IMG/VR virus record: IMGVR_UViG_3300020577_002532
Span: 4,345-68,344 of that record
Origin: a virus
Lineage: Duplodnaviria; Caudoviricetes
DNA: 64,000 bases
Direction: 5' to 3' (one strand)
Shown here: positions 35,416 to 54,874 of the stretch, piece by piece
Numbering within the stretch: the stretch's first letter is position 1
Layout: every line of letters starts with the position of its first letter
Notes under the pieces: generated by a model
Told to the model about the DNA's origin: nothing
The model's database searches: none
Seen by the model: only the letters and a program-made list of their open reading frames with translations
Translations under genes and position numbers: made by a program

Positions 35416-35646
35416 GTGGCCCATCGTACCCCACCGCCCGACGTCTGTAAGCATCGACGGCTTCTCAACAAGATTAGTTCTTTGGGGAATCCCAAGAACA
35501 ACTATCTCCACTACCTCAACCGGGAAGAAGCCCGTTGGACGGCCATTCGTTTGGATTACAATGATCCCCGATCTTACTTGGTGATTAAGGCTTTCCGCTT
35601 GGAGAAACAACGGATTGCCCAAGAGATCAAAGGATTGATCCGATAG
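35416..35646 (+). CDS. Hypothetical basic protein
   Basis: AAGGAG RBS; GTG start. Confidence 0.55.
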   Translation: MAHRTPPPDVCKHRRLLNKISSLGNPKNNYLHYLNREEARWTAIRLDYNDPRSYLVIKAFRLEKQRIAQEIKGLIR

Positions 35647-35701
35647 TAAAGCAACCAGGCTTGGAGGCCAGGTTGGGAACCTTTTGGACAAGGAGAAAGT
35701 C

Positions 35702-42238: not shown

Positions 42239-42323
42239 ATTTAGTTCAATCGCCTGATCCGATAGTAGAACAGTGGACGTTTGGACGTTGAAGAGTAACC
42301 CGATGGGTGAGGAGGATGGACCG

Positions 42324-43124
42324 ATGGACGCGAACAAGAAGCGGACGGTGATGATGGGGATTCTGGCGAAAATGGGGGCTTCATTTACGCCCAGTATCTC
42401 TCTCAGTCGGGCAGAGACCAAGCTGGCCCGGTATGTGGAGAAGGACGGCATTCCCAAAGACTTGACGGACGATGAACTGGCCCTGCTCAAGGAAATGGGA
42501 ATCACTTCCAACGCCGCCAAGTCCGGCAAGAGCGTGTTGGAGGTCTTGGACGATGAGGAGGATGAAGAGGAAGCCCCCAAGCCGTCCAAGAAGCCTGCCA
42601 AGAAGGAAGAGGCAGAGGACGATGAGGAGGATGGGGAAGAGGCAGAAGAGGCAGAGGATGAGGACAAGGATGTCCCAGAGGACGATGAGGAGGATGAAGA
42701 GGAAGCCCCCAAGCCGTCCAAGAAGCCTGCCAAGCCCGCCAAGAAGGAAGAGGTGGAGGAGGATGGGGAAGAGGCTGAGGAGGATGAAGAGGAAGCCCCC
42801 AAGCCCGCCAAGGAGGAAGCGGAAGAAGAGGCTGAGGAGGATGAGGAAGAAGCCCCCAAGCCTGAGAAGAAGCCCAAGGCCCCCAAGCCTCCCAAGGTCG
42901 CCAAGGCTGGTTGGATGGCTTGCGCGGCTCTGGCCGTCCTGTCTTCCAAGACCTTGGAGGACGCCGCCAAGAAGGCCATTGAAAACTATCTGGCGGAAGG
43001 TGGACGGGAAGTGCCCCAGATCCAGAAGCGTGGGGTGCTGTACGTCTCCCGGGCCTTGGCCGTCCTGACGCTGGAGCAGGTGGCCCTCGTCAAGGTGGAT
43101 GGTAACAAAATCATCCATGGCTGA
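42324..43124 (+). CDS. Protein with long acidic/Lys-Pro block repeats between two small folded domains
   Basis: DDEEDEEEAPKPSKKPAKKEE repeats; GAGGAGG RBS. Confidence 0.8.
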   Translation: MDANKKRTVMMGILAKMGASFTPSISLSRAETKLARYVEKDGIPKDLTDDELALLKEMGITSNAAKSGKSVLEVLDDEEDEEEAPKPSKKPAKKEEAEDDEEDGEEAEEAEDEDKDVPEDDEEDEEEAPKPSKKPAKPAKKEEVEEDGEEAEEDEEEAPKPAKEEAEEEAEEDEEEAPKPEKKPKAPKPPKVAKAGWMACAALAVLSSKTLEDAAKKAIENYLAEGGREVPQIQKRGVLYVSRALAVLTLEQVALVKVDGNKIIHG

Positions 43125-44199
43125 ACCGCCAAAGGTATACCATTCTGCGGTTGGAGTGAGAGGGGACTGCTTGTACTGTCCCCTCTCGCTCAGCATAGAT
43201 AGTTATTGGAATTGCGAAGCTGATTGTCACCACTGCTATTGCCGCCGATTGAATCGAATATGGGGCCAAGACCTTCGCCCAGCAGACCCAGAAGCCGTCC
43301 GCAGGAAGCTGGAATGCGGCCTGAGGAATCCCAACCCTTGTACCACTGTGGCCTACGCTCTGTTCAACAAAAAGACTTTGAGGTTGGGGAGCCGGACAGA
43401 CCCATACCAAGACGCTGAGCGCACCCATAAGGTGTCCTCCCGGATTCAAACGGTGTTAATCCGGTTGCGTTGGACCTATGTGATCCAATCCCGGTTTATG
43501 TCCAACATGCTTTGGGATGAGGGGAAGATGGATACAGCTCGGGGGCTGAAACTCCTCCAGATTATGCCGGTGATCTCTCCCGGCGCAGAACTGGATTGGG
43601 AGGTCTTGGAGCGAAAGCGGACCACCTCTATCCCACGCCGTCTGAGGATCATCCAACGTTGGATCAAGAGGGGTCATCGGGTTGGGGTTAATGGGGAGCC
43701 GTTCATCCCAGGTTACCATACCCCAGAGCAATTCCGGGATATAATCAAGCGGATTAAAGCCGTGGGGGTAACCAGTTACAATACGTACAACCTTCACTTC
43801 AACGACCACGTAGCCAAACGCCTCCATTCCATAGGGTTGGATATTGAGCGTATCTGGGAACATAACCAAGATGATAAATGGCGGCCCATCCTCCAGAAGT
43901 TGTTGGACATAGCCAAGGAAGAAGACATCCTGTTGGGATGCCCTGACTTTGTGAATACTGGTTGGGGCTGGAGAGAACGGGCCAACACTTGTTGCGGATT
44001 GAACGTCCCAAATCCTTCCCGGTTCAACTCTCACCGCTGGAAGCAGTTGAAGCAGAAGGGGATTTCTGCGGAGGAGATCATCAGACGGACTTGGGAAGGT
44101 ATTGGGGACTTTGAGGACGGCAAGAAGATTGTTTTTGGGGAGTCTGGGAAGTTTTTCAGTTTGGCCGATGTGAAAGGAGATCAGCATGAGTCTGTTTGA
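43117..44199 (+). CDS. Radical SAM protein (SPL-like) 1
   Basis: CEADCHHC (CxxxCxxC), LRLGSRTDPYQDAE and GEPFIPG motifs; extra Cys (GCPDFVN, TCCG). Confidence 0.9.
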   Translation: MAEPPKVYHSAVGVRGDCLYCPLSLSIDSYWNCEADCHHCYCRRLNRIWGQDLRPADPEAVRRKLECGLRNPNPCTTVAYALFNKKTLRLGSRTDPYQDAERTHKVSSRIQTVLIRLRWTYVIQSRFMSNMLWDEGKMDTARGLKLLQIMPVISPGAELDWEVLERKRTTSIPRRLRIIQRWIKRGHRVGVNGEPFIPGYHTPEQFRDIIKRIKAVGVTSYNTYNLHFNDHVAKRLHSIGLDIERIWEHNQDDKWRPILQKLLDIAKEEDILLGCPDFVNTGWGWRERANTCCGLNVPNPSRFNSHRWKQLKQKGISAEEIIRRTWEGIGDFEDGKKIVFGESGKFFSLADVKGDQHESV

Positions 44200-45094
44200 C
44201 GGCGTTCCCAAGGATGATTTGGAGACGGTGGAGCGACAAACCGAGATAGCCGTGGTGGGGGCTGGGATAATGGGGGCCTCCATCGGTGAGAACCTCCGGT
44301 CCAAAGGTCGGAAGGTCACCATCCTGGACGATGGGAGGCCCATGTCCGGTTCCAGACCTTGTGGGGGCAGCATCAAGCCTTCCCCTCTCACCGGCCTGAC
44401 CAAGGAAGAAGAGAAACCCATACTGGACGTCATGGACCGATTGTTTACCATTCGGCAGGAACAGTTTGTGATCCGGCCCTCCGGGGGATTCCTCAAGATC
44501 AACGTCTATCAGGTCTGTATGGACAAGGTATTTGCCGTCCAGAAGAAGACAGCCACGGTTGAGAAGGTGTTTCTGAAGGGAAACATGCCGGTGGTGATTT
44601 ACCGCACCGAAAAGCGCAGGGTCCACCTTAGATGTGAGCGGGTGGTGATCGCTGCCGGAGGGTGGTGCGGGCAGCTGTTACCGGCCCATTTCCCGGAGAA
44701 GTCTATCCAGCTGAAGCGGGGAGCGGCCTTTATCTTTGACCGGAAGACCGAACAGGCCTTTGTTCAAACGTGGGCTCCATACAAGCAAATCACCGTCCAT
44801 CCTATCCAAGTGAATGGGGAGGAGAAGACTTGGGGAGCGGATGGGACGGCTCTGATCCCAGAGAGTTGGGAGGATGGACGCACCGCCATGTGTCTCCTCC
44901 GCATCCAGAAGGCTATGGGGGTGAAGGATGTCCCGTCTCAAACCTTGGAGGGTTACAGGCCCTTCCATGTGTCCAAGGCCAAGCCTTGCTACTTGGAAGA
45001 AGTTCTCCCGGGGATTTGGGCTACCACTGGAGCTGGTAAGTTTGGTTGCATTTCCGCCGCATGGGCCGCCAACAAATTGGGAGAAAAGCTATGA
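44186..45094 (+). CDS. FAD-dependent oxidoreductase (DAO/glycine oxidase-like)
   Basis: VVGAGIMG, VVIAAGGW, LEGYRP and ATTGAGKFG motifs. Confidence 0.88.
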   Translation: MSLFDGVPKDDLETVERQTEIAVVGAGIMGASIGENLRSKGRKVTILDDGRPMSGSRPCGGSIKPSPLTGLTKEEEKPILDVMDRLFTIRQEQFVIRPSGGFLKINVYQVCMDKVFAVQKKTATVEKVFLKGNMPVVIYRTEKRRVHLRCERVVIAAGGWCGQLLPAHFPEKSIQLKRGAAFIFDRKTEQAFVQTWAPYKQITVHPIQVNGEEKTWGADGTALIPESWEDGRTAMCLLRIQKAMGVKDVPSQTLEGYRPFHVSKAKPCYLEEVLPGIWATTGAGKFGCISAAWAANKLGEKL

Positions 45095-46080
45095 GATGGG
45101 ATCAGGTTTTGGAGGAGTTGAAGACCAAGCGGAGTTTTCAACAGATGTCTCCTCTCACCATTGATTCCCTCCGTGGGACTCTTTGGGGAGACAAATACCG
45201 GGGAAGTCTGACGGAGTATTGGGAAAATGGGAGTGAAGACCGATACAAATTGTTGGTAAACACTGTCCAACGTATCCAACACTTGTTCCACACTGAGTTA
45301 CAAACCCAACGCCTTTCCCATGAACCCCAACCTTACAGGATGGGTTGGGGTACTTATGGGTGGGACTACAATCCGGCCTTGGTTAGGAAAGCGGTGGAAG
45401 GACATTGCTTAATTGATACGGCTTCCACCTATGGTTATGGGAAAGTGGAAAAGGAATTGTCCAAGGCCCTTTACCAGATAGACATAGTGGCCAAGATTTC
45501 CACCAAATTCCCAAGGACCCAATCTTCCTTCAAGGCTACCATGGCCGCTGGGTTGAGGGCCAGTACGACCTTTGGGAGGTTCCATAGGTTGATGTTGAGT
45601 ATCCATTGGCCAAATGAGAAGACCATGGAGACCATGCGGGCACTCCAGACTCTCAAGGACCGTAACCGGATTGACGAGATTGGGGTTTGTAACTTCTCCT
45701 TGGACCGTCTGATTCAGGCCCAAAGGATGCCTCTGGGTGCTCTCCAGATACGTTTTAACCCTGTTGATCGATCAGCTAGGCGCGTGGTAATCCCCAATTG
45801 TCTTCTCCGGGGGATTCCGGTTGTTGGGTACAGTACCTTTGGACAAGGTCTCAAGAAGTTGTTGGTCAAGGACCGTCATCAGGTTCTGAGTAGACTGTCC
45901 AAGACATACCAAGCGACACCGGCCCAGATCATTCTGGCTTGGTCTATGAGTTATGGGGTCATCCCATTATTCCAGACGAACAATCTGAAGCACCTCCAAG
46001 AGAACGTGGAGGCCCGGGACTTAAAGCTGGAGAAATCCGATATTCTAGCAGTGGAAGAATCTTTCATCGAGGAGGTGTAA
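45091..46080 (+). CDS. Aldo/keto reductase with about 80-aa N-terminal extension
   Basis: MGWGTY, IDTASTYG, ISTK, IHWP, IGVCNFS, QIRFN, TPAQIILAW and HLQENV motifs. Confidence 0.88.
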   Translation: MRWDQVLEELKTKRSFQQMSPLTIDSLRGTLWGDKYRGSLTEYWENGSEDRYKLLVNTVQRIQHLFHTELQTQRLSHEPQPYRMGWGTYGWDYNPALVRKAVEGHCLIDTASTYGYGKVEKELSKALYQIDIVAKISTKFPRTQSSFKATMAAGLRASTTFGRFHRLMLSIHWPNEKTMETMRALQTLKDRNRIDEIGVCNFSLDRLIQAQRMPLGALQIRFNPVDRSARRVVIPNCLLRGIPVVGYSTFGQGLKKLLVKDRHQVLSRLSKTYQATPAQIILAWSMSYGVIPLFQTNNLKHLQENVEARDLKLEKSDILAVEESFIEEV

Positions 46081-46081
46081 G

Positions 46082-47485
46082 TTGTTAGACTACTACGAAT
46101 TGCGGAAGAAGGTTGCTGGGATCATTCCCAGAATGACTCAGTTGGTGATGAAGAAGAAGCACACGGCGGCTGTCCAAGAGAAGGGACGCAAGGCTGGGTA
46201 CCGGGAGTTTAAGCTTGGACAATGCGAGTGGGTTAAACAGGAACGTCTCCTGAATACCCAAGAGATCAACAGCTTTGCTGAAATATCCTGTCGGGCCCAA
46301 GCTTGCCCCATGCCCCTGAACTTGGACGTTTGGGACGGCTTGCTTTGTCCATACAACTGTCGGTACTGCTTTGCCAACGCCTTCCGGGCTTCCCTGTACA
46401 CGGCTTTCTTTGATAATTCCAAGACCATGGGAATCCGCCATTGTAACCCAGACATGTATAAGCGGGAGTTGGGGAAGCTGATGAAGTACCGGGGGAAGGA
46501 CCCCCATAGTATTTCCAACGATGTTGGGAAGGCTGTAGCCATGGACCTCCCCATGCGTCTGGGAATCCGGTTTGAGGACTTCTTGGATGAGGAGAAAGAG
46601 GCTGGGATCAGTCTCCAGCTCTTGAAGTATCTGTCCTCCCAGAGTTACCCAGTCATGATCAACTCCAAGAGTGCTCTGGTTGGGACTGAACCTTACGCCA
46701 AGGCCCTCTCTGGGAACAAGGGGAAGGCTGCTGTCCATACAACCCTCATCTCCAGTGACGACAAACTGTTGAAGGAATTAGAACCTGGTGCCCCGCCATA
46801 CAAGGACCGATTGGAGGCCATGGCGGCCTTGGTACAGGCTGGGGTACGGGTGGTGGCCCGAATTGAGCCTTTCCTCCCATTCATCAACGACAAGGAAGAC
46901 GATGTGAGGAAGTACATTGCGGACATGAAGCGAATAGGCGTTGGGCACATTACCTTCGACACCTACTCATACTCCGCCAACAACCCGGGCATCCGCCAAT
47001 CGTTCATCAACTCTGGGTTCGATTGGGAGCGGATATTCCTGATTGGGTGCGATTCTCAGGCCCTTGGGAGCCTTCTCTTGGGTTCTTTCATGGAGATGTT
47101 CCGCAAGGAGGGCTTCAGCTGCTCCACCTTTGATATGGGGAATGTCCCAACAAACGACCAACGGGTGTGTTGTGAGGTGGAGGACTGGTTCCCCAAGAGT
47201 GGGTTCAACTATGGGTGCTCCGTCTATGCGGCCCGATTTGTCCAAGCCTCCAAGAAGCCCGTCCGGTGGAGGGATTTCCAAGCTTGGGTGAACGAACATG
47301 GGGGCTTCCTGAGCCCAGCCTTGGAGATGGAGGTCCATCAGCTTTGGAACATGGAAGGGAATGAAGCATACTCCCACGCTTGGGCGCGGGGGATTGAGGC
47401 TTGTGGTTGGGAGAGGGATGGGATGGTTTGGCGATTCTCTCCCAAGGGAGATTTCAGGGAAGACCTTTTGGAGGGAATGCTGTGA
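46082..47485 (+). CDS. Radical SAM protein (SPL-like) 2
   Basis: CPYNCRYC, RLGIRFEDF, LEPGAP and RIEPF motifs; TTG start after GAGGAGG. Confidence 0.9.
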   Translation: MLDYYELRKKVAGIIPRMTQLVMKKKHTAAVQEKGRKAGYREFKLGQCEWVKQERLLNTQEINSFAEISCRAQACPMPLNLDVWDGLLCPYNCRYCFANAFRASLYTAFFDNSKTMGIRHCNPDMYKRELGKLMKYRGKDPHSISNDVGKAVAMDLPMRLGIRFEDFLDEEKEAGISLQLLKYLSSQSYPVMINSKSALVGTEPYAKALSGNKGKAAVHTTLISSDDKLLKELEPGAPPYKDRLEAMAALVQAGVRVVARIEPFLPFINDKEDDVRKYIADMKRIGVGHITFDTYSYSANNPGIRQSFINSGFDWERIFLIGCDSQALGSLLLGSFMEMFRKEGFSCSTFDMGNVPTNDQRVCCEVEDWFPKSGFNYGCSVYAARFVQASKKPVRWRDFQAWVNEHGGFLSPALEMEVHQLWNMEGNEAYSHAWARGIEACGWERDGMVWRFSPKGDFREDLLEGML

Positions 47486-47979
47486 AAAACACCATGATTC
47501 TTTCTGAAACAATCCCAACTTCCATCGTGGGAAAATGGGGGGAAAGTTTTGTACAAGCTATTTTGTTGGGGAAGGGATACCAAGCGGAAATTTGGAGAAA
47601 CCGGACTATAGATGTTTTTGCTTTCCGTGGGAGTTTGAGGTTGGGGTTTTCTGTAAAGGCCCGGAGAAGAAGTTTGATGGATGAAGAGGAGAGTATCAAC
47701 CTGTTTGAAAGTCCAGAGAATAGGCGTAAATTTGAAGAGGTTTGTTTTCTTCAAAATTGTGTACCTTGGATTGCTTGTGTGGTATCTTTTGAATTGGGAG
47801 GTACGGAAGTGTTTCTTATGCCTTTGAGTTACTATGATGAGAAATACAGAGGGAAGACTGGGCGGAAGATAGATGATCTGAAGATGGGGCTCAAGTACCG
47901 TCGTGCATACCCTTCTGACCCAAATGTAATTTGGGGAAGGATTCCCATAGATTGGTTGAAGAGAGGAGAACTACTGTGA
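47482..47979 (+). CDS. PD-(D/E)XK restriction-endonuclease-like nuclease
   Basis: GKWGESFV...IDVFAFR...FSVKARR; visibly AT-richer than its neighbours. Confidence 0.65.
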   Translation: MKNTMILSETIPTSIVGKWGESFVQAILLGKGYQAEIWRNRTIDVFAFRGSLRLGFSVKARRRSLMDEEESINLFESPENRRKFEEVCFLQNCVPWIACVVSFELGGTEVFLMPLSYYDEKYRGKTGRKIDDLKMGLKYRRAYPSDPNVIWGRIPIDWLKRGELL

Positions 47980-48728
47980 AACTTTCTAACCGATTGGAAG
48001 ACATTTTCGCCCACGCCGTTGCGCTCCAACAGAGCGGACGGCTGCGCTCCACCGTGTATTGTATTGGGAGGAAGGTCTTCATCCTGAACCAAGACCAAAC
48101 TGTCCTCCTCCGGTTCTTGCTCCGGGAGACGGACAAGATGGAGTTTGAGCATCCGGTATCCTTCGCTGCCAACGATTATGACTCCAAGGAAGTGGAGGAG
48201 CGGGATGGGAGGATTTGCTTCATCCAGAACGCTGCTGGGTTTGAGAGGGTGAAGTCTTGTCGGACGCCTTCCATGAGCCCAGAGGAGGTTCAGGCCCTCT
48301 TCAAAGGCTATGAGCTGTTCCAACAGAACCAAGTTGTTCTCCATAAAGACGTGTTGGGGTTGTTGGATGAAAGCCTATCTCATATTGAGTTCTCCGCCAA
48401 GGGTGGGGCTTTCAAGATTGTCCAGAGGAACATCTACTCTGGGAGTCATATTGAGCTGAAACGGGAGGAGGCCAAGGGCCTTGGGTTGAACGTGGTGGAG
48501 GATTCTTTGGAGGACTTCAAGCCCATAGGGTTGAGAACAGACGATTTCTTGGCCCTCTTTAGTTTTGTGGATAGCCTGACTTTCTACTTCCAGACGGGCG
48601 GGTTGGTCTGGGCCGAATCCAAGGATGCTAAGATGCCCTTGAGGGCATTGATTTCCAAGTGTAAGTACGATGAACTGGGAGGAACGGATCATGGGAGGCA
48701 AGAGCAGGAAGACCGGGGGAGTGAGTAG
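47976..48728 (+). CDS. Hypothetical protein (250 aa; sliding-clamp-like fold possible)
   Basis: AGAGGAG RBS; alternating alpha/beta pattern; fold call is speculative. Confidence 0.55.
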   Translation: MKLSNRLEDIFAHAVALQQSGRLRSTVYCIGRKVFILNQDQTVLLRFLLRETDKMEFEHPVSFAANDYDSKEVEERDGRICFIQNAAGFERVKSCRTPSMSPEEVQALFKGYELFQQNQVVLHKDVLGLLDESLSHIEFSAKGGAFKIVQRNIYSGSHIELKREEAKGLGLNVVEDSLEDFKPIGLRTDDFLALFSFVDSLTFYFQTGGLVWAESKDAKMPLRALISKCKYDELGGTDHGRQEQEDRGSE

Positions 48729-48766
48729 AGCATTGATCAATCGGATCAAGCAAGGAGGAAAGACCT

Positions 48767-49573
48767 GTGGAAAACCTAAACCCCAACCTCAAACCGGAGG
48801 ACTTCTGGGCTCTTCTGGAGCAAAGCCCTCTGGTACCTAACTTCTGGATGACGGAAGAATACGTCCAGAGGAAGGGCCTTCAGTGGGTGGAGGAGGACGG
48901 GGAGTGGGGTTGGCAGGAGTTGGAGGAGGGGGGTTGGATTTTCCCTCCCATTCACAACACTGGTCCCAACCTGTTTGGGTTTGATTTGAAGGCCCCATGT
49001 TGGGCTGGGTTCTTGGTAAAGGCCATGGACGTTTCTTGGGACCAAGCCATGAACATGTTGGACCAACAATTCATTTACGACCCCAAGCAGTTTATGGACC
49101 TCACTGGGAGCCGGTGGAAGGTATTCCGCAAGAATGTTCGGAAATATCCTGACCGATTCCCAGGCTTTCTTGAGTACAAGTCCATCCAGCCCGGGGAGTA
49201 TGATCTGGAGCTTACAGAGATGCTTCTCAATTGGGCCGGCGCCAAGGAGGTCCAAGACAACGAAGTCATGGTGGACTACCTTTTCAATGGGAACCAACGT
49301 TGGGGCCTGTTCCGGGATGGGAAGCTGGAAGGGGTGAATGTGGCGGATGAGAACCATAAACACCTCATCTTCCGGTACTGTCTGGATTGTGGTATCCCAT
49401 TCCTCAACGAGTATCTGCGTTGGAAATTCTACACGGACCCATACGTTCAAAGTTCTGGGAAGCTGGTGAACGATGGGGGAAGCTTGGGAAGTCAAGGTCT
49501 GTTTACCTTCAAGATGAAGTTGAATCCGGTTGAAGTCTACCATGTAGTCACCACTCTCAAGAAAGGGGTGTAA
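48767..49573 (+). CDS. DUF2156-like / aaPG-synthase C-terminal GNAT-fold protein
   Basis: KVFRKNVRKY, GKLEGVN and LVNDGGSLGSQGLFTFKMKLNP parallel the DUF2156 ..IN..EDLG..GLR..K.S..P pattern. Confidence 0.55.
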   Translation: MENLNPNLKPEDFWALLEQSPLVPNFWMTEEYVQRKGLQWVEEDGEWGWQELEEGGWIFPPIHNTGPNLFGFDLKAPCWAGFLVKAMDVSWDQAMNMLDQQFIYDPKQFMDLTGSRWKVFRKNVRKYPDRFPGFLEYKSIQPGEYDLELTEMLLNWAGAKEVQDNEVMVDYLFNGNQRWGLFRDGKLEGVNVADENHKHLIFRYCLDCGIPFLNEYLRWKFYTDPYVQSSGKLVNDGGSLGSQGLFTFKMKLNPVEVYHVVTTLKKGV

Positions 49574-49574
49574 G

Positions 49575-50018
49575 ATGTGGTCCAAGGTCATTCCCAATCG
49601 GAAGGAAGTGATATCCACCCTTTGGACAATCATCGCTGAGAATCCCAACTTGAAGGACGTTGATGGGGTGTTGGTATTCCCTCCGGTTCCATACCCCAAG
49701 TTCCAGTTGGAGAATTACAACCATTGGAACCTCCCAGAGAATGTGAAGGTGGCGTTGGCCAAGGCCCTTACTCACCGGGAAAGCCGGGGAGCTTTGGTGG
49801 CCACGGCCAAGGCTCAGTGGTTCATAGCGGCCACGGGTTCCAACTACCAAGAGATGTTTGAGAAGTTCTTTTGTTATGGGGAGGCCCAAGGGTTGTTTGA
49901 GAGTGGTTCAGAGCCTATCCCACTACCCAGTTGGTGGGGAAAGACGTGGGGAGTGGAAGGAACCGTGGAGGAGCAGAAGGCCCGGAGCAGGAAAACATTC
50001 TGGACCCACCAAGGATAG
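49575..50018 (+). CDS. Hypothetical protein
   Basis: The ORF is coupled to the previous gene; no motif recognised. Confidence 0.6.
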   Translation: MWSKVIPNRKEVISTLWTIIAENPNLKDVDGVLVFPPVPYPKFQLENYNHWNLPENVKVALAKALTHRESRGALVATAKAQWFIAATGSNYQEMFEKFFCYGEAQGLFESGSEPIPLPSWWGKTWGVEGTVEEQKARSRKTFWTHQG

Positions 50019-50051
50019 TCCTGGTGGGAACAATAGCTGAGGAGAAGTCCC

Positions 50052-51062
50052 ATGAAAGTCAAGCGTGAAGAATTGCTTCAATCCCTCCAATTTGCTCGGT
50101 TGGGGCTTTCCAACCGGGGAGAAACGTTGGAACAGTCCAATTCCTACGTCTTCAAGGATGGGAAGTTGGTTACGTTCAATGATGAGATTCTTTCCCGGTG
50201 TACCAGCCCTTTGGGCGACCTCCAAGCGGCTGTGTTGGCGGAAGAGTTTCTGACGCTGGTGGAAAAACTCCCGGATGAGGAGTTGGAGGTTGAGTTGAAG
50301 GGCAAGGAGATGGTGTTGGTTGGAACCCGGAGGAGTGCTGGGATCACGGCTTTCATTGAGATCCAGCTTCCCTTTGATGCCGTGCCGGCCCCAGAAAAGT
50401 GGTACAAACTTGGGGAGAAGACCTTTGGGATGCTCCAACAGGCTGCTCGCATCTGCTCCCGGGATGCTACCATGGAACTCACCACGGTGGTCCACGCCAC
50501 TCCCAAGCTGGTAGAATCCTGCGATAACTTCCGGTTGTTCCGGGCCACCATTGAAACGGGCTTCCCGGAGGAGGTTTTGATCCCAGCGGAATCCCTACTC
50601 AAGTTGGAGCCTTGGAAGGTGGTCTCCGTCAGCGTTGGGAAAGGTTGGGTACACTTCCGAACAGAAGACAAGACCCACGTTGTCTCCATCCGTTGCTCCC
50701 ACGAGAAGTACCATGGGAATCTGGATGTTCTCCTGACCTTGGGGAAGGACGCTGAGACGGTATCTCTCCCGGGTAACTTGGTAGAGATTGTGGAACGCTC
50801 CAGCGTTATGTTGGACGCTGAGCGTCCTGCCGTCCAAGTGAAGATGGAGGCTGGGAAGCTGACCTTGATCTCCCGGAAAGATACGGGTTGGTACAAGGAG
50901 ACCAAGAAAGTCAAGTATGAGGGGAAGCCCTTGGACTTTGAGGTCAACGCCAAGTTCCTGGTGGAGGTGTTTGGTCGTTCCAAGGATGTCCAGGTGGATT
51001 CCAAACGCCTCAAGTTGGTTACGGATGAAATTGAATTCGTTTCCGCTCTGAAGAGGGACTGA
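50052..51062 (+). CDS. DNA polymerase sliding clamp (beta-like)
   Basis: MKVKREELLQSL, VTFNDEI, three-domain length and FEVNAKFLVEV motifs. Confidence 0.8.
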   Translation: MKVKREELLQSLQFARLGLSNRGETLEQSNSYVFKDGKLVTFNDEILSRCTSPLGDLQAAVLAEEFLTLVEKLPDEELEVELKGKEMVLVGTRRSAGITAFIEIQLPFDAVPAPEKWYKLGEKTFGMLQQAARICSRDATMELTTVVHATPKLVESCDNFRLFRATIETGFPEEVLIPAESLLKLEPWKVVSVSVGKGWVHFRTEDKTHVVSIRCSHEKYHGNLDVLLTLGKDAETVSLPGNLVEIVERSSVMLDAERPAVQVKMEAGKLTLISRKDTGWYKETKKVKYEGKPLDFEVNAKFLVEVFGRSKDVQVDSKRLKLVTDEIEFVSALKRD

Positions 51063-51157
51063 TGGGACCGTGGGGAGTCAGCGGTTTGGCCATGCGTGCC
51101 CTACCTTGCCCTGTGTGGGCGAATACCGCTGACCCCACTCTTGAGAAGGAGAATGCC

Positions 51158-52351
51158 ATGGGTTTCTTTAGTCCTTCCTCTTGGCAGTTGAAAGAGAAAA
51201 TCCAATCCAAGATTGCTCGGTGCGGTCAGTGCGGCCTTGGGAAGAAGTGTTACAGCCCACGGATGGGAGTCACTGGGAAGGGAAACCGGAAGGTGTTGTT
51301 TGTGGCGGAAGCCCCCGGGGAGCAGGAGGACCGGCAAGGGACCCAGCTGGTGGGAGACGCTGGGAAGTGTCTCCGCAGGATTCTCAAGGGCGTGGGGATG
51401 GATTTGGAGGAGGGCTGGAAGACCAACGCTGTGATTTGCCGGCCTCCAGAGAACAAGATGAACCCATTGTATATTGAGTGTTGCAGGCCTTTTCTACTGG
51501 AGACCATCCAGAAGCTGGCCCCCAAGGTGATCGTGTTGCTAGGTGGCAGCGCGGTGGAAAGTTTGGTGGCTCCCATCTGGAAGAAGGATTTGGGACCTTT
51601 GGAGAGGTGGGTGGGGTGGACGATTCCATCTGGGGTTTACAACTCGTGGCTCTGCCCCACCTACCATCCGTCTTACATCCTTCGCTTGGGAGAGGATGAG
51701 TTGTTGGTAAAGATTGTCCAAGATCACTTGGAGAGGGCTTTGGCTTTGGAGGATGAGCCTATCCAGATACCCACTTTGGAGTCCCTCAAATCCAAGGTGG
51801 AGGTTATCCATAAGCCTCGGGAAGCCCGATTGAGACTCAAGGATTTGGCGACCAAGGAGGGCCTTCTGGCGTTTGATTATGAGACCACCGGCCTGAAGCC
51901 GGAACGGCCTGAACAACGGATAGTGTCCGTATCATTTTGCTTGGACGGGAAGGACACTTTTTCTTGCAAGCTGGGACCGAATGTGGATAGGCTGGTTTCG
52001 GCTGTGCTATCGAACAGGAAACTGGGTAAGATAGCCAGCAATCTGAAGTTTGAGGAACGCTGGACCAGAGTTAAACTGGGCCACCCCGTTCAGAACTGGG
52101 TTTGGGATACGATGCAGGCGGCTCACATCTTGGACAACCGTCCGGGGGTCACCTCTATCAAGTTCCAAGCTTTCCTTCACTTTGGGGTGGCTGATTACAA
52201 TTCTGGGGTGGATGATTACTTGAAGGCGGATGGGGCTAATGGGATCAACCGGATAGATCAGTTGGACGATCAGGACCTTCTGATGTATAACGGGTTGGAT
52301 TCCCTGTTGGAGTTCATGGTGGCGAAAAAACAGATGGAGGCAATGGTATGA
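51158..52351 (+). CDS. Family-4 uracil-DNA glycosylase + 3'-5' exonuclease (N-terminal half of a split PolA)
   Basis: CGQC, VAEAPGEQED, NAVICRPP and TYHPSY in the UDG part; AFDYETTG, SNLKFE and DTMQAAH in the exonuclease part. Confidence 0.88.
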   Translation: MGFFSPSSWQLKEKIQSKIARCGQCGLGKKCYSPRMGVTGKGNRKVLFVAEAPGEQEDRQGTQLVGDAGKCLRRILKGVGMDLEEGWKTNAVICRPPENKMNPLYIECCRPFLLETIQKLAPKVIVLLGGSAVESLVAPIWKKDLGPLERWVGWTIPSGVYNSWLCPTYHPSYILRLGEDELLVKIVQDHLERALALEDEPIQIPTLESLKSKVEVIHKPREARLRLKDLATKEGLLAFDYETTGLKPERPEQRIVSVSFCLDGKDTFSCKLGPNVDRLVSAVLSNRKLGKIASNLKFEERWTRVKLGHPVQNWVWDTMQAAHILDNRPGVTSIKFQAFLHFGVADYNSGVDDYLKADGANGINRIDQLDDQDLLMYNGLDSLLEFMVAKKQMEAMV

Positions 52352-53772
52352 TCCCATACTCCCGGGATGCTTACAAGCTGATGCACGAGGGTTCCATAGC
52401 CTTGGCCCAGATGGAAACCAACGGGATTTGCGTGGATACGGATTACTTGTCCAAGGCTATCCGTCGCACCACCCGGAAGATCAAACGCCTTCAGGAAGCC
52501 CTTTCCCAGTCGGAAGTGGCCAAGGCTTGGAAGAGGACTTTTGGGCCCAAGACCAACCTGAACTCCACGGATCAGTTGGGAAGGGTGTTGTTTGAAGTAA
52601 TGAAGTTTGATTGTACTTCCCGGACGGCTTCCTTGAAATACAGTACGGATGAGAAGTCCTTGGCCCAAGTGAACCATCCATTTGTCCAAGACTACCTCAA
52701 GGTGAGAAAACTCCAGAAGAGTTTGGGGACCTATTTGTTGGGAATTCAGAGGGAAGTGGTTGATGGGAAGGTCCACCCCAACTTCTCTCTTCACTTGGTA
52801 CGCACCTTCCGGTCTTCCTCAGACAACCCCAACTTCCAGAACATGCCTATTCGCAATCCCGATATTGGGAAACTGATTCGGCAAGCTTTCAAATCCCGTC
52901 CGGGCCATCGGTTGGTAGAATCCGATTACAGTGGGATTGAGGTTAGTATAGCAGCTTGCTACCATCAGGACCCAACAATGCATACGTATCTCCGGGACAA
53001 GACCAAGGACATGCACCGGGATATGGCTATGGAGTGCTACAAACTTCCTCCAGAGGAAGTGAAGGCCCTTCCCAACGATAAGGATGATGCCAAGCGGATC
53101 AAGACCATTCGCTATTGTGGGAAGAATATGTTTGTGTTCCCACAGTTCTATGGGGATTGGTATATCGAATGCGCCCGGAATCTTTGGGAGGCTATCCAGA
53201 CTATGGGCCTCCATCTCCGGGATGGAACCAGCTTGGAGGACCATCTCAAGGCCCAAGGGATCAGGCGTCTGGGGGCTTTGGACTTCAAGGAGAAGCCTGT
53301 TGCTGGGACTTTTGAAGCCCATATCCAAGCCGTTGAGAAACGGTTCTGGGAAAAGCGTTTCCCGGTGTATGCCCGTTGGAAGCGGAAGTGGGTGGAAGAG
53401 TACCGGGAGAAGGCTTGGATGTTGACCAAGACGGGCTTTATTTGTCAGGGATGGCTGAAGAAGAATGAGATCATTAACTATCCGGTCCAAGGCTCTGCTT
53501 TCCATTGTCTCCTTTGGGCCCTCACCCAGATTCAGTTGGAGTTGAACCGGAGGAAGATGAAGACCTTGTTGGTGGGACAAATCCATGATTCTCTACTCGC
53601 TGACGTACCAGAGGAGGAGATGGATGAATATATGGATTTGTCCCACCAGATTATGGTTCCGGGATTGATGAAGCATTGGAAGTGGATTAATGTTCCTCTG
53701 GAGACAGAGGCGGAAGCTACACCGGTTGGGGGAAGTTGGTTCCAGAAGGAGGTTTGGAAGAATGGGTCCTGA
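52348..53772 (+). CDS. DNA polymerase family A, polymerase domain
   Basis: SDNPNFQNMP, motif A DYSGIE, motif B KNMFVFPQFYG, NYPVQG and motif C QIHDS. Confidence 0.95.
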   Translation: MIPYSRDAYKLMHEGSIALAQMETNGICVDTDYLSKAIRRTTRKIKRLQEALSQSEVAKAWKRTFGPKTNLNSTDQLGRVLFEVMKFDCTSRTASLKYSTDEKSLAQVNHPFVQDYLKVRKLQKSLGTYLLGIQREVVDGKVHPNFSLHLVRTFRSSSDNPNFQNMPIRNPDIGKLIRQAFKSRPGHRLVESDYSGIEVSIAACYHQDPTMHTYLRDKTKDMHRDMAMECYKLPPEEVKALPNDKDDAKRIKTIRYCGKNMFVFPQFYGDWYIECARNLWEAIQTMGLHLRDGTSLEDHLKAQGIRRLGALDFKEKPVAGTFEAHIQAVEKRFWEKRFPVYARWKRKWVEEYREKAWMLTKTGFICQGWLKKNEIINYPVQGSAFHCLLWALTQIQLELNRRKMKTLLVGQIHDSLLADVPEEEMDEYMDLSHQIMVPGLMKHWKWINVPLETEAEATPVGGSWFQKEVWKNGS

Positions 53773-53932
53773 GCCAAACAAACATGTGGAGTTGGCTTTT
53801 CGGGAGTTGGCGATCACTTTGGGAAACGCCAAAGCGTATGAACGCCAAGGACGGGTTGCCTTGGCCGCCAAGTACTGGGATCAAGCCCGGGCGGTTGTCG
53901 ATTGGTTGAATAGTGGGAAGAAGAAAGGATGA
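53762..53932 (+). CDS. Hypothetical protein
   Basis: AAGGAGG RBS; helical 56 aa. Confidence 0.5.
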   Translation: MGPEPNKHVELAFRELAITLGNAKAYERQGRVALAAKYWDQARAVVDWLNSGKKKG

Positions 53933-53935
53933 GCC

Positions 53936-54844
53936 ATGGAACTTTACAAGAAGCATCGACCAAGGGCATTGAAGGCGGTGATGGGGGCCGAACAGACCTG
54001 CGCGGCCTTGACCAACATGTTGGAGAAGGGGACACTTCCACACACCATCCTCTTCCACGGCCCATCTGGGTGTGGAAAGACTACGTTGGCCCGGATTCTC
54101 AAGACCGGACTCAACTGCCACGACATGGATTACAAGGAATTAAACTGCTCAGACTTCCGTGGGATTGATACCATCCGGGAAATTGCCCGTCTGATGAACT
54201 TGGCTCCCACCGGGGGAGACTGCCGGATATGGCTTCTGGATGAGGTCCACCAGTTGTCCAAAGACGGCCAGAATGCGGCGCTGAAGATGTTGGAAGATAC
54301 TCCTCCGCATGTTTACTTCTTCCTGTGTACCACTGATCCCCAGAAACTCCTCAAGACGATCCAGACCAGGTGTTGCGAGATGCCGGTCAGACTTCTTACC
54401 CATGAGGAGTTGGAGGAATTGGTGAAGAAAGTGTGTCGCCGGGAGAACCTGACCGTGACGGAGGACGTTCTGGATGAGATTGTAACTTGCTCTCAGGGAT
54501 CAGCCCGGACGGCTCTGGTGCTTCTGGACAAGGTGGTAAACCTGAAGGCTGAGGAGCAGGTCCAAGCCATCCAACAGAAGCTGGCGGAGGAGAACGAAGC
54601 AATTGAGCTTTGCCGCGCCCTCCTCCAGAAGAAAGATTGGGGAACAGTGACGGCTATCCTCAAGAATCTCAAAGGAGAACCAGAAGCCATTCGCCATGCG
54701 GTTCTGGGGTATTCCCGGGCTGTTCTTCTCAACAAGAAGGACACCCAAGCCTTCATGGTCATTCAGGCCTTCCGGGACAACTTCTATGACTCCAAAGGCC
54801 CGGGCTTGGTGGCGGCTTGTTTTGAAGCCTTGTACTCCCAATGA
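53936..54844 (+). CDS. Clamp loader AAA+ (DnaX gamma/tau-like)
   Basis: LYKKHRP, GPSGCGKTT, LDEVH, TIQTRC and GSARTAL motifs. Confidence 0.92.
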   Translation: MELYKKHRPRALKAVMGAEQTCAALTNMLEKGTLPHTILFHGPSGCGKTTLARILKTGLNCHDMDYKELNCSDFRGIDTIREIARLMNLAPTGGDCRIWLLDEVHQLSKDGQNAALKMLEDTPPHVYFFLCTTDPQKLLKTIQTRCCEMPVRLLTHEELEELVKKVCRRENLTVTEDVLDEIVTCSQGSARTALVLLDKVVNLKAEEQVQAIQQKLAEENEAIELCRALLQKKDWGTVTAILKNLKGEPEAIRHAVLGYSRAVLLNKKDTQAFMVIQAFRDNFYDSKGPGLVAACFEALYSQ

Positions 54845-54874
54845 AACCGATAGTAAAGGCAGGAGGAAGTAGCC

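Follow-up and report, generated by a model that had tools for sequence, protein, structure and literature searches.

A conserved radical SAM gene module in an uncultured phage and its relatives as a candidate route to DNA hypermodification with a new entry

The genes described here lie in the replication region of an uncultured phage, represented by the 68,344-bp IMG/VR record IMGVR_UViG_3300020577_002532; bases 4345 to 68344 of this record, a stretch of 64,000 nucleotides, are referred to below as the window. The genome carries 77-bp direct terminal repeats and has all of its genes on the plus strand. An earlier note on this DNA had drawn attention to eight genes between DnaB on the 5′ side and the sliding clamp and uracil-DNA glycosylase (UDG)-PolA genes on the 3′ side, and had proposed them as a candidate new DNA hypermodification pathway. 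All eight open reading frames (ORFs) are present on the plus strand and are coupled through their stop and start codons, and both flanks were borne out, with genes for an SNF2 protein, primase and DnaB upstream and genes for a beta clamp, a UDG-exonuclease, PolA and a clamp loader downstream; a ninth gene, a micro-ORF of 49 codons at 48691-48840, had however been overlooked. These genes are part of a packed block (42273-54844) in which neighbours either overlap at stop and start or are separated by at most 40 nt, and in which most starts are preceded by a GGAG-type ribosome binding site. The block comprises, in order, the gene of an acidic protein directly after DnaB, a first radical S-adenosylmethionine (SAM) enzyme (rSAM1), an enzyme that depends on flavin adenine dinucleotide (FAD), an aldo-keto reductase (AKR), a second radical SAM enzyme (rSAM2), a 161-aa nuclease-like ORF, a 250-aa protein, the 49-aa micro-ORF, a 268-aa protein, a 147-aa ORF, the beta clamp, the UDG-exonuclease, PolA and the clamp loader.

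To which of these genes the module is confined became evident from its relatives. A scan of IMG/VR with the single rSAM2 sequence gave no match and an alignment of rSAM2 homologues was required to retrieve related loci, of which 80 were fetched in this manner and combined with two loci from the Joint Genome Institute (JGI), giving 82 loci that were compared by tblastn and ORF clustering. More than 500 metagenomic homologues of rSAM2 (over 500 clusters at 90% identity) were found, and the module is present in hundreds of uncultured phages. It sits between DnaB and PolA in every locus, with the fixed order DnaB, acidic protein, rSAM1, a variable slot, rSAM2, 250-aa protein, 268-aa protein, clamp, UDG-exonuclease and PolA. 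rSAM2 was present in 82 of the 82 loci, rSAM1 in 74, the 250-aa protein in 78 and the 268-aa protein in 71, many of the absences of core genes being due to a locus sequence that ends too early. The expectation that the genes would co-occur in other phages thus holds for the core genes, which occur together in nearly all of the related loci, while the notion of eight genes as one unit holds for four of them and the micro-ORF but not for the others, which are not conserved. The conserved core is therefore made up of a pair of paralogous radical SAM enzymes, a protein with PCNA fold (the 250-aa product), a micro-peptide and a tandem-GNAT transferase (the 268-aa product), and not of the redox pair, as the FAD gene occurs in just 5 loci, the window included, and the AKR gene in 13; both are accessory tailoring genes rather than the heart of the system, as they had been presented. 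With a median identity of 58% rSAM2 exceeds all other proteins of the module in conservation, the corresponding values being 50% for rSAM1, 41% for PolA and 29% for the clamp; the loci were picked via rSAM2, yet the comparison was made inside the same loci.

Neither this phage nor its core proteins could be linked to a cultured isolate. A DNA-level search of GenBank phages returned no match to this phage, no usable relatives of rSAM1, rSAM2 or the transferase were found among 50,697 phage records, and the nearest PolA in the same records is less than 30% identical, indicating that there is no cultured relative. Among 185,579 species genomes rSAM2 was encountered in just 5 contigs, all from metagenome-assembled genomes and distributed over five different phyla, and these contigs are probably mis-binned phage contigs which carry no host signal. 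The sequencing runs listed for this phage are DNA runs, including a bioreactor metagenome, and no RNA run is listed.

The gene for rSAM1 (366 aa) is located at 43099-44199 on the plus strand, with an alternative start at 43117, and that for rSAM2 (467 aa) at 46082-47485 on the same strand. The two proteins are paralogues (BLASTP E 5e-9), and in both families the CxxxCxxC motif of radical SAM enzymes is present and invariant, being formed by C39, C43 and C46 in rSAM1 and by C89, C93 and C96 in rSAM2. rSAM1 has no Pfam match, PF04055 included, and matches the PA0069-type radical SAM family of NCBIfam with an E value of 3e-11; rSAM2 scores 27.8 bits against PF04055 (E 3e-6), just below the cut-off of 29.5, and matches the PA0069 and Rv2578c families of NCBIfam at E 1e-11, the NCBIfam scores of both proteins being far under the equivalog cut-offs. 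The profile of rSAM2 aligns with gp53, the radical SAM enzyme of Pseudomonas phage M6, at an hhalign probability of 86% (E 5.5e-6), and the rSAM1 family profile gives 23 bits against the same protein. On the basis of these profiles both enzymes fall into the M6 gp53/COG1533 branch, and the kinship to gp53 is one of branch level and not of orthology. Four more conserved cysteines are found in each family (C27, C281, C298 and C299 in rSAM1; C75, C323, C363 and C364 in rSAM2), arranged as a Cys-Pro some 12-14 residues ahead of the motif, a single Gly-Cys and a Cys-Cys late in the sequence, and this suggests the presence of an auxiliary Fe-S cluster. Spore photoproduct lyase (SPL) is without such an auxiliary cluster. 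gp53 was itself matched to SPL by its authors (PMC8989533), and the JGI label of the rSAM2 family is ‘DNA repair photolyase’. The two families also possess conserved C-terminal tails, YT[LM]KDAG in rSAM1 and DFRxxLLE in rSAM2.

Several variants of the radical SAM genes were observed among the relatives. An insert of approximately 1 kb is located just before the CxxxCxxC motif of rSAM2 in three loci (L062 8662-11131, L082 3020-5622 and L083 8540-11158) and in protein P0008, where it comprises Hint and intein-splicing domains, so that some relatives have inteins at the cluster motif of rSAM2. In L022 (11754-13268), L057 (8688-10211) and L071 (12175-13737) a third radical SAM paralogue, about 505-520 aa long, is encoded 3′ of the transferase gene, after a conserved ORF of some 113 aa without known family, and in another contig this third paralogue contains an intein with a DUF559 endonuclease. 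Seven further loci (L010, L011, L020, L035, L061, L072 and L077) carry upstream of rSAM1 a DUF362 gene (Pfam 7e-36), with rSAM1 itself present as a divergent and longer form of 377-409 aa that is approximately 23-25% identical to rSAM2, and these look like a distinct subtype of the module.

The 250-aa product of the gene at 47976-48728 (plus strand) had been listed as an unknown; the gene is real, but its product is a PCNA-like clamp as judged by predicted fold. An AlphaFold2 model based on 59 sequences (pLDDT 88, pTM 0.84) displays a two-domain clamp fold, for which Foldseek retrieved RAD9 as the best match and PCNA from the PDB (E 1e-9, probability 1.0), while viral sliding clamps are among the matches in BFVD. 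Comparison with yeast PCNA by VIA gave a Z score of 16.6 over 218 residues with a root mean square deviation of 4.0, and the 9-1-1 clamp scored equally within error. As the phage also encodes a beta clamp, whose gene starts at 50052, the 250-aa protein represents a second clamp-fold protein, and its gene is always located directly 3′ of rSAM2 (78 of 82 loci). A 404-aa PCNA-like protein in L071, which was considered as a fusion, was rejected as an over-extended ORF.

The micro-ORF (48691-48840, plus strand) overlaps the genes on either side, at the end of that for the PCNA-like protein and at the start of that for the transferase, and a GGGAGG sequence is located 8 nt 5′ of its ATG. A hidden Markov model (HMM) of its product, which starts with the head MGGKSRKxG, recovered 79 stretches, corresponding to nearly every locus that spans the junction. 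Residues G2, G3, K4, S5, R6, K7 and G9 do not vary in any of the 61 distinct sequences despite the use of all synonymous codons, including both AGY and TCN for serine and both AGR and CGN for arginine, which argues that the micro-peptide itself is under selection. The head is followed by a short amphipathic stretch, a linker rich in lysine, serine and glycine and, in 54 of the 61 sequences, a hydrophobic pair near the C-terminus which seems to resemble clamp-binding motifs.

The 268-aa protein (48767-49573, plus strand), for which no Pfam family was found at E ≤ 0.1 and whose family comprises 562 clusters at 50% identity, had been called a DUF2156-like GNAT-fold protein, and this was confirmed by its predicted fold. 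In VIA comparisons the AlphaFold2 model (pLDDT 94, pTM 0.90) was closest to the soluble DUF2156 protein 2hqy (Z 20.6), which was also recovered from the PDB sequences by the family profile (E 7e-4), followed by the catalytic domains of MprF/aaPGS (Z 13-15), FemX and the tRNA-dependent peptide synthases Sbb17 and Sba18 (Z 12-13) and CoA-dependent tandem GNATs (Z approximately 10-11). The protein is thus best described as a stand-alone DUF2156/tandem-GNAT transferase of the aminoacyl-tRNA-dependent type, for which the ranking of DUF2156, MprF, FemX and Sbb17 folds ahead of the others points to a charged tRNA as the putative donor. No fused forms were found among longer proteins, although this is weak evidence. 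A dedicated tRNA gene was not found in the window, nor is one a consistent feature of the relatives, as 56 of 60 loci have none and the four tRNAs in the others are assorted; one locus (L044 14682-14757) has a tRNA-Gly(CCC) directly after the clamp gene, and the three others carry a tRNA-Leu, tRNA-Ile or tRNA-Gln near the module.

The slot between the two radical SAM genes is a swappable cassette across the relatives, and in the window it is occupied by the FAD enzyme and the AKR. The former (44186-45094, plus strand), described as a DAO-like FAD oxidoreductase, indeed matches Pfam DAO (1e-12) and contains the FAD-binding GxGxxG sequence as GAGIMG; it is specifically a homologue of gp47 (NGTO) of Pseudomonas phage PaMx11, to which it is 32% identical over its full length (282 residues). 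The sole PDB matches were 8z2o and 8z79, annotated as ‘Flavin-dependent lyase’ (E 1e-36, residues 18-299 against 2-282), and all 20 matches among the 50,697 phage records are gp47-type genes of PaMx11-like phages with 28-33% identity, one of which adjoins an annotated aGPT pyrophosphorylase. Weak scores were obtained with the MnmC and glycine-oxidase models of NCBIfam. gp47 oxidises N-alpha-glycinylthymine in DNA to 5-aminomethyl-deoxyuridine and glyoxylate, and in the NGTO-DNA structure Tyr180 forms a wedge that is needed for DNA binding, Gln182 contacts the flipped thymine and Arg242 is the likely binder of the carboxylate (PMC11472151). Tyr180, Gln182, Arg242 and Lys268 are retained in 5 of 5 members of the FAD family, with phenylalanine at the position of Tyr244. 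An oxidative C-N cleavage of an N-linked glycine adduct is more likely at this step than the oxidative deamination that had been proposed. The AKR call was likewise sound, the product of the gene at 45091-46080 (plus strand; the longest ORF starts at 45046) scoring 99.7 bits against a cut-off of 24 with Pfam Aldo_ket_red (E 2e-28), with DkgA/DkgB-like matches in NCBIfam, a readable Asp-Tyr-Lys-His tetrad and an N-terminal extension of about 95 aa. The AKR gene follows the FAD gene in all five loci that have the latter, the window included, which points to a carbonyl product of the oxidase, and in the other eight of its 13 loci it directly follows a methyltransferase-like gene. The suggestion that the AKR acts as electron donor for the radical SAM enzymes was set aside, as it found no support.

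In the relatives the slot contains most frequently a pyridoxal phosphate (PLP) enzyme of the PALP family (41 of 82 loci), in addition to the AKR, FAD and DUF362 genes (13, 5 and 7 loci, the last with the divergent rSAM1), a probable class I methyltransferase, on weak evidence, in 22 loci and DNA N6/N4 methyltransferases in 11+3 loci, and in some relatives it is empty. The PLP enzyme, of which the window itself has no gene, is 36% identical to gp52 of phage M6 at 98% coverage (E 3e-46) and gave no match to any solved cellular PLP enzyme; its gene is located directly 5′ of rSAM2, in the same order as gp52-gp53 of M6. In the M6 pathway gp52 decarboxylates C-alpha-glycinylthymine after the action of the radical SAM isomerase gp53, and thymidine hypermodification clusters have been described as following this same plan, in which a constant core is combined with varying tailoring genes (PMC8989533).

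The first steps of the known pathways could not be found. In all thymidine hypermodification pathways described in the literature searched, which extends to August 2026 (PMC13458397), 5-hydroxymethyl-deoxyuridine (5-hmdU) is provided by a thymidylate-synthase homologue and is then acted upon by a DNA kinase and an amino acid:DNA transferase. This genome and four or five relatives, of which three or four are complete, were searched in six frames with HMMs. These searches detected no thymidylate synthase (PF00303) at E ≤ 1 in this genome and five relatives, with control genomes being positive, and no 5-hmdU DNA kinase at E ≤ 1, either with PF18748 or with M6 gp54 as query, in this genome and four relatives. 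Similarly, there was no amino acid:DNA transferase of aGPT-Pplase clade 2 at E ≤ 1 by HMM (PF18724) or with M6 gp51 as query, other aGPT-Pplase clades not having been searched, no TET/JBP enzyme (Tet_JBP) in this genome and four relatives, and no ThyX in this genome. The remark that the window lacks homologues of the kinase, the aGPT transferase and thymidylate synthase therefore extends to the whole genome, and the search of its remainder for genes of the hmdU route, as had been advised, found none; these negatives mean that the known entry into thymidine hypermodification is absent. A nucleotide kinase, dNTPase or hydroxymethylase was not found in this genome either. ThyX genes were observed in two complete relatives, L087 (G005 74167-74712) and L088 (G003 69571-70176). 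As the published metagenome survey was anchored on the 5-hmdU kinase (PMC8989533), it could not have found this family.

The match of the FAD enzyme to gp47 and to nothing else in the PDB, the gp52 homologue of the relatives, the alignment of rSAM2 to gp53, the clamp and transferase folds, the syntenic core with its varying tailoring genes and the absence of the entry enzymes together favour a role in DNA hypermodification. We consider it probable that the genes constitute a module for post-replicative, thymidine-type DNA hypermodification whose entry is new, radical and dependent on tRNA, while its chemistry we infer; the earlier proposal of a new base-modification route that proceeds without hmdU kinase, aGPT transferase or thymidylate synthase is thereby favoured, on the strength of the gp47 and gp52 homologues and the conserved core. 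In the best reading the pathway ends like that of PaMx11 in this phage, or like that of M6 in half of the relatives, and begins differently. The phage would replicate with ordinary deoxynucleoside triphosphates (dNTPs), and the PCNA-like ring would hold the enzymes on the newly made DNA. The transferase would take an amino acid, most likely glycine, from a charged tRNA, and one or both radical SAM enzymes would attach this by radical chemistry to a pyrimidine, the simplest site being the C5-methyl of thymine, yielding an adduct of the glycinyl-thymine type. The FAD enzyme may then cut this adduct oxidatively to 5-aminomethyl-deoxyuridine and glyoxylate, as NGTO does, and the AKR may reduce the resulting carbonyl, be it glyoxylate or a DNA-bound aldehyde. 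The likely benefit would be that the phage DNA is shielded from host nucleases.

Comparison with characterised systems underlines both the familiar end and the unfamiliar beginning of the proposed pathway. In PaMx11, 5-AcNmdU is produced by the 5-hmdU DNA kinase gp49, the amino acid:DNA transferase gp46, NGTO (gp47) and the acetyltransferase gp48 (PMC8989533, PMC11472151). The present phage shares with it a gp47-type protein, homologous over the full length (32% identity, E 1e-36), and in both the gene is part of a DNA-metabolism cluster; however, HMMs detect no homologue of gp46, gp49 or thymidylate synthase here, an AKR takes the place of gp48, and the upstream steps would fall to the pair of radical SAM enzymes together with the clamp-fold protein, the micro-peptide and the tandem GNAT. 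In phage M6, 5-NedU results from the kinase gp54, the amino acid:DNA transferase gp51, the radical SAM isomerase gp53 and the PLP decarboxylase gp52 (PMC8989533). Half of the relatives possess the gp52 homologue and the PLP-rSAM gene order, and rSAM1 and rSAM2 are remote relatives of gp53, whereas the window is devoid of a PLP gene, gp51, gp54 and a hydroxymethylase, and contains two radical SAM paralogues instead of one, with a pattern of extra cysteines other than that of gp53. Precedent for post-replicative DNA hypermodification by a GNAT-superfamily enzyme that uses a charged tRNA is provided by Mom of phage Mu, which transfers glycine from Gly-tRNA to the N6 of adenine in double-stranded DNA (PMC13219725). 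Mom is a single small GNAT that acts alone on adenine, whereas here a tandem GNAT of the DUF2156/MprF/Fem type always comes together with radical SAM enzymes, the clamp-fold protein and the micro-peptide. Elp3, in which radical SAM and GNAT domains are fused, uses acetyl-CoA to carboxymethylate C5 of U34 in tRNA. By description it resembles the present module in pairing the chemistry of a radical SAM enzyme with an acyl donor bound to a GNAT, by which a C-C bond is formed on a pyrimidine; it differs in being a single fused protein with an RNA target and acetyl-CoA as donor.

Several points weigh against this interpretation. We infer the acceptor base, the amino acid, the order of the steps and, likewise, the modified base. 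The weakest joint is chemical, as an aminoacyl transferase makes an amide or an ester while the enzymes homologous to gp47 and gp52 use glycine in N- or C-alkyl linkage, which as yet leaves a gap between the steps. The micro-peptide may span this gap by acting as a carrier, or it may itself be what the enzymes act on. The description of the radical SAM enzymes as SPL-like stands at the level of the COG1533-type family but not at that of a sequence-profile match to solved SPL, none of which was recovered by either family profile from the PDB sequences at E ≤ 1 or at E ≤ 10. Trp51 and Phe52 of NGTO, which stack on thymine, and Lys202 are replaced in the FAD family, and the absence of the FAD gene from 8 of the 13 AKR loci makes the role proposed for the AKR a weak one. 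The CoA-dependent tandem GNATs rank just a few Z units below the tRNA-dependent ones, the PCNA-like protein is tied to the module by position alone and, with the replisome genes as its neighbours too, could be a plain replication clamp, and an invariant micro-peptide encoded together with two radical SAM enzymes fits a system for ribosomally synthesised peptides with post-translational modifications (RiPPs) as well.

A more specific scheme, which we put forward tentatively and hold to be rather less likely than not, is that thymine is functionalised directly in DNA by a clamp-tethered machinery, with the glycine being presented on the micro-peptide. In such a scheme a radical SAM enzyme would remove a hydrogen from the C5-methyl group of a thymine within duplex DNA, running the allylic radical chemistry of SPL forwards, and the thymine radical would couple to a glycine on the invariant N-terminus of the ribosomal micro-peptide, which the tandem GNAT would reload from Gly-tRNA. 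Peptide and enzymes would ride on a dedicated PCNA-like ring via their C-terminal motifs. Glycinyl-thymine would thus arise without 5-hmdU, kinase or amino acid:DNA transferase, and FAD/AKR, PLP or methyltransferase cassettes would diversify the base.

It is unlikely, in our estimation, that the pathway is instead centred on the peptide, as a RiPP-like product or scaffold. In that event the transferase would add an amino acid from tRNA to the N-terminal glycine of the micro-peptide, which would then be remodelled by the radical SAM and tailoring enzymes to a modified peptide or to a small molecule derived from the peptide, for instance a cofactor or anti-defence compound, leaving the PCNA-like protein as a second clamp of the replisome. 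The head of the micro-peptide, invariant in all 61 sequences under selection at the protein level, the overlap of its ORF with the transferase gene and the four extra cysteines of both radical SAM enzymes, with the auxiliary cluster that they suggest, are consistent with this, as is the fact that the fold relatives of the transferase, of the Fem, L/F-transferase, ATE1 and NMT type, have peptide amines as their targets, either at the N-terminus or on side chains. The combination of a radical SAM enzyme and a small peptide with a flavin oxidase and a reductase also recalls the biosynthesis of pyrroloquinoline quinone and mycofactocin. However, the tailoring enzymes are specifically homologous to enzymes that act on DNA adducts, with the FAD enzyme retaining the wedge residue Tyr180; the slot, into which DNA methyltransferases are inserted, showed neither a RiPP recognition element nor a peptidase or an exporter, and the module occupies the DnaB-PolA position in every locus. 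A small-molecule pathway with an anti-defence function, which the earlier note had offered as an alternative, is likewise a weaker explanation than base hypermodification.

Chemistry directed at the nucleotide pool or at RNA appears improbable. The module might produce a non-canonical dNTP before replication, or modify tRNA or another RNA in the manner of MnmC (cmnm5U/nm5U) or of Elp3 at U34, and the weak MnmC and glycine-oxidase scores of the FAD enzyme point in this direction, as does the conservation of the module at the level of core replication genes, similar to the dNTP-modifying genes of T4 and SPO1. Elp3 furthermore couples a radical SAM domain to a GNAT domain and modifies C5 of uridine (PMC13219725). 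Against this, enzymes with polymeric DNA as substrate give by far the stronger matches, a clamp-fold protein belongs to the conserved block, and the genome yielded none of the nucleotide-metabolism enzymes named above. Plain DNA repair by radical SAM enzymes of the photoproduct-lyase type with a 9-1-1/PCNA-like damage clamp, the remaining genes being unrelated neighbours, found no support and was set aside as highly improbable, since the JGI name, the COG1533-type NCBIfam matches and RAD9 as top Foldseek match, which agree with it, leave unexplained the paralogues with extra cysteines, the aminoacyl-tRNA-type transferase, the invariant peptide and the gp47- and gp52-type enzymes, and since rSAM2 is more conserved than the polymerase, lacks a profile match to solved SPL and is accompanied by a clamp that scores equally with PCNA and 9-1-1.

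With hypermodification as the favoured reading, known finishing enzymes would operate behind a different front end, in which radical SAM enzymes are joined by a tRNA-type transferase, the clamp-fold protein and the invariant micro-peptide. If true, this would represent a second, radical entry into DNA base hypermodification and the first clamp-associated DNA-modifying machinery in phages, and charged tRNA and a ribosomal peptide would both be put to a new use. New enzymes for the site-independent derivatisation of DNA would then be gained as well, and the same reading would explain why the DNA of such phages may resist restriction enzymes and sequence poorly.

Two ORFs of the block are specific to the window. 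The 161-aa ORF (47494-47979, plus strand), inserted in the conserved block between rSAM2 and the PCNA-like gene, had been called a nuclease; a PD-(D/E)xK-like pattern (GE...IDV...SVK) is readable and NCBIfam YraN matches at E 0.087, which lends the call weak support, but the ORF is not a conserved member of the module, having no family, no homologue in the 82 loci and no PDB match. It is possibly a mobile, selfish or homing nuclease. The 147-aa ORF (49575-50018, plus strand) is a real ORF, as had been noted, and is without a Pfam, PHROGs or NCBIfam family or a homologue in the 82 loci; its Atlas model is poor (pLDDT 0.41) with no credible neighbour, and it probably lies outside the module.

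The first gene of the unit (42273-43124, plus strand), which follows DnaB, encodes an acidic/basic low-complexity protein without a Pfam family. It is matched (E 1.9e-8) by an HMM of the family designated c3, built from the protein after DnaB in 59 related loci, and consists of conserved helical N- and C-terminal parts that are separated by long charge blocks of glutamate, lysine and proline, its position being kept in at least 59 loci. Directly 5′ of this gene the motif CGATAGTAGA is found at 42260-42269 on the plus strand. The consensus CGATAGTARA occurs in three exact copies in the window (35641-35650, 42260-42269 and 54848-54857), as compared to 0.01 expected, each just 5′ of a gene start, and as the copies at 42260 and 54848 flank the block (42273-54844) that opens with the acidic protein and closes with the clamp loader, the motif is suggested to be a phage-specific promoter or operator. 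At the other end of the module the beta-type sliding clamp (50052-51062, plus strand; Pfam DNA_pol3_beta_3, E 1.8e-6) is conserved in 60 loci. It is followed at 51062-53772 by a split PolA, of which one gene encodes a UDG domain and a 3′-5′ exonuclease and a separate gene the polymerase, and in relatives extra genes are located between these two, such as a MazG-like PRA-PH gene in L002 and a DUF7178 gene in another contig.

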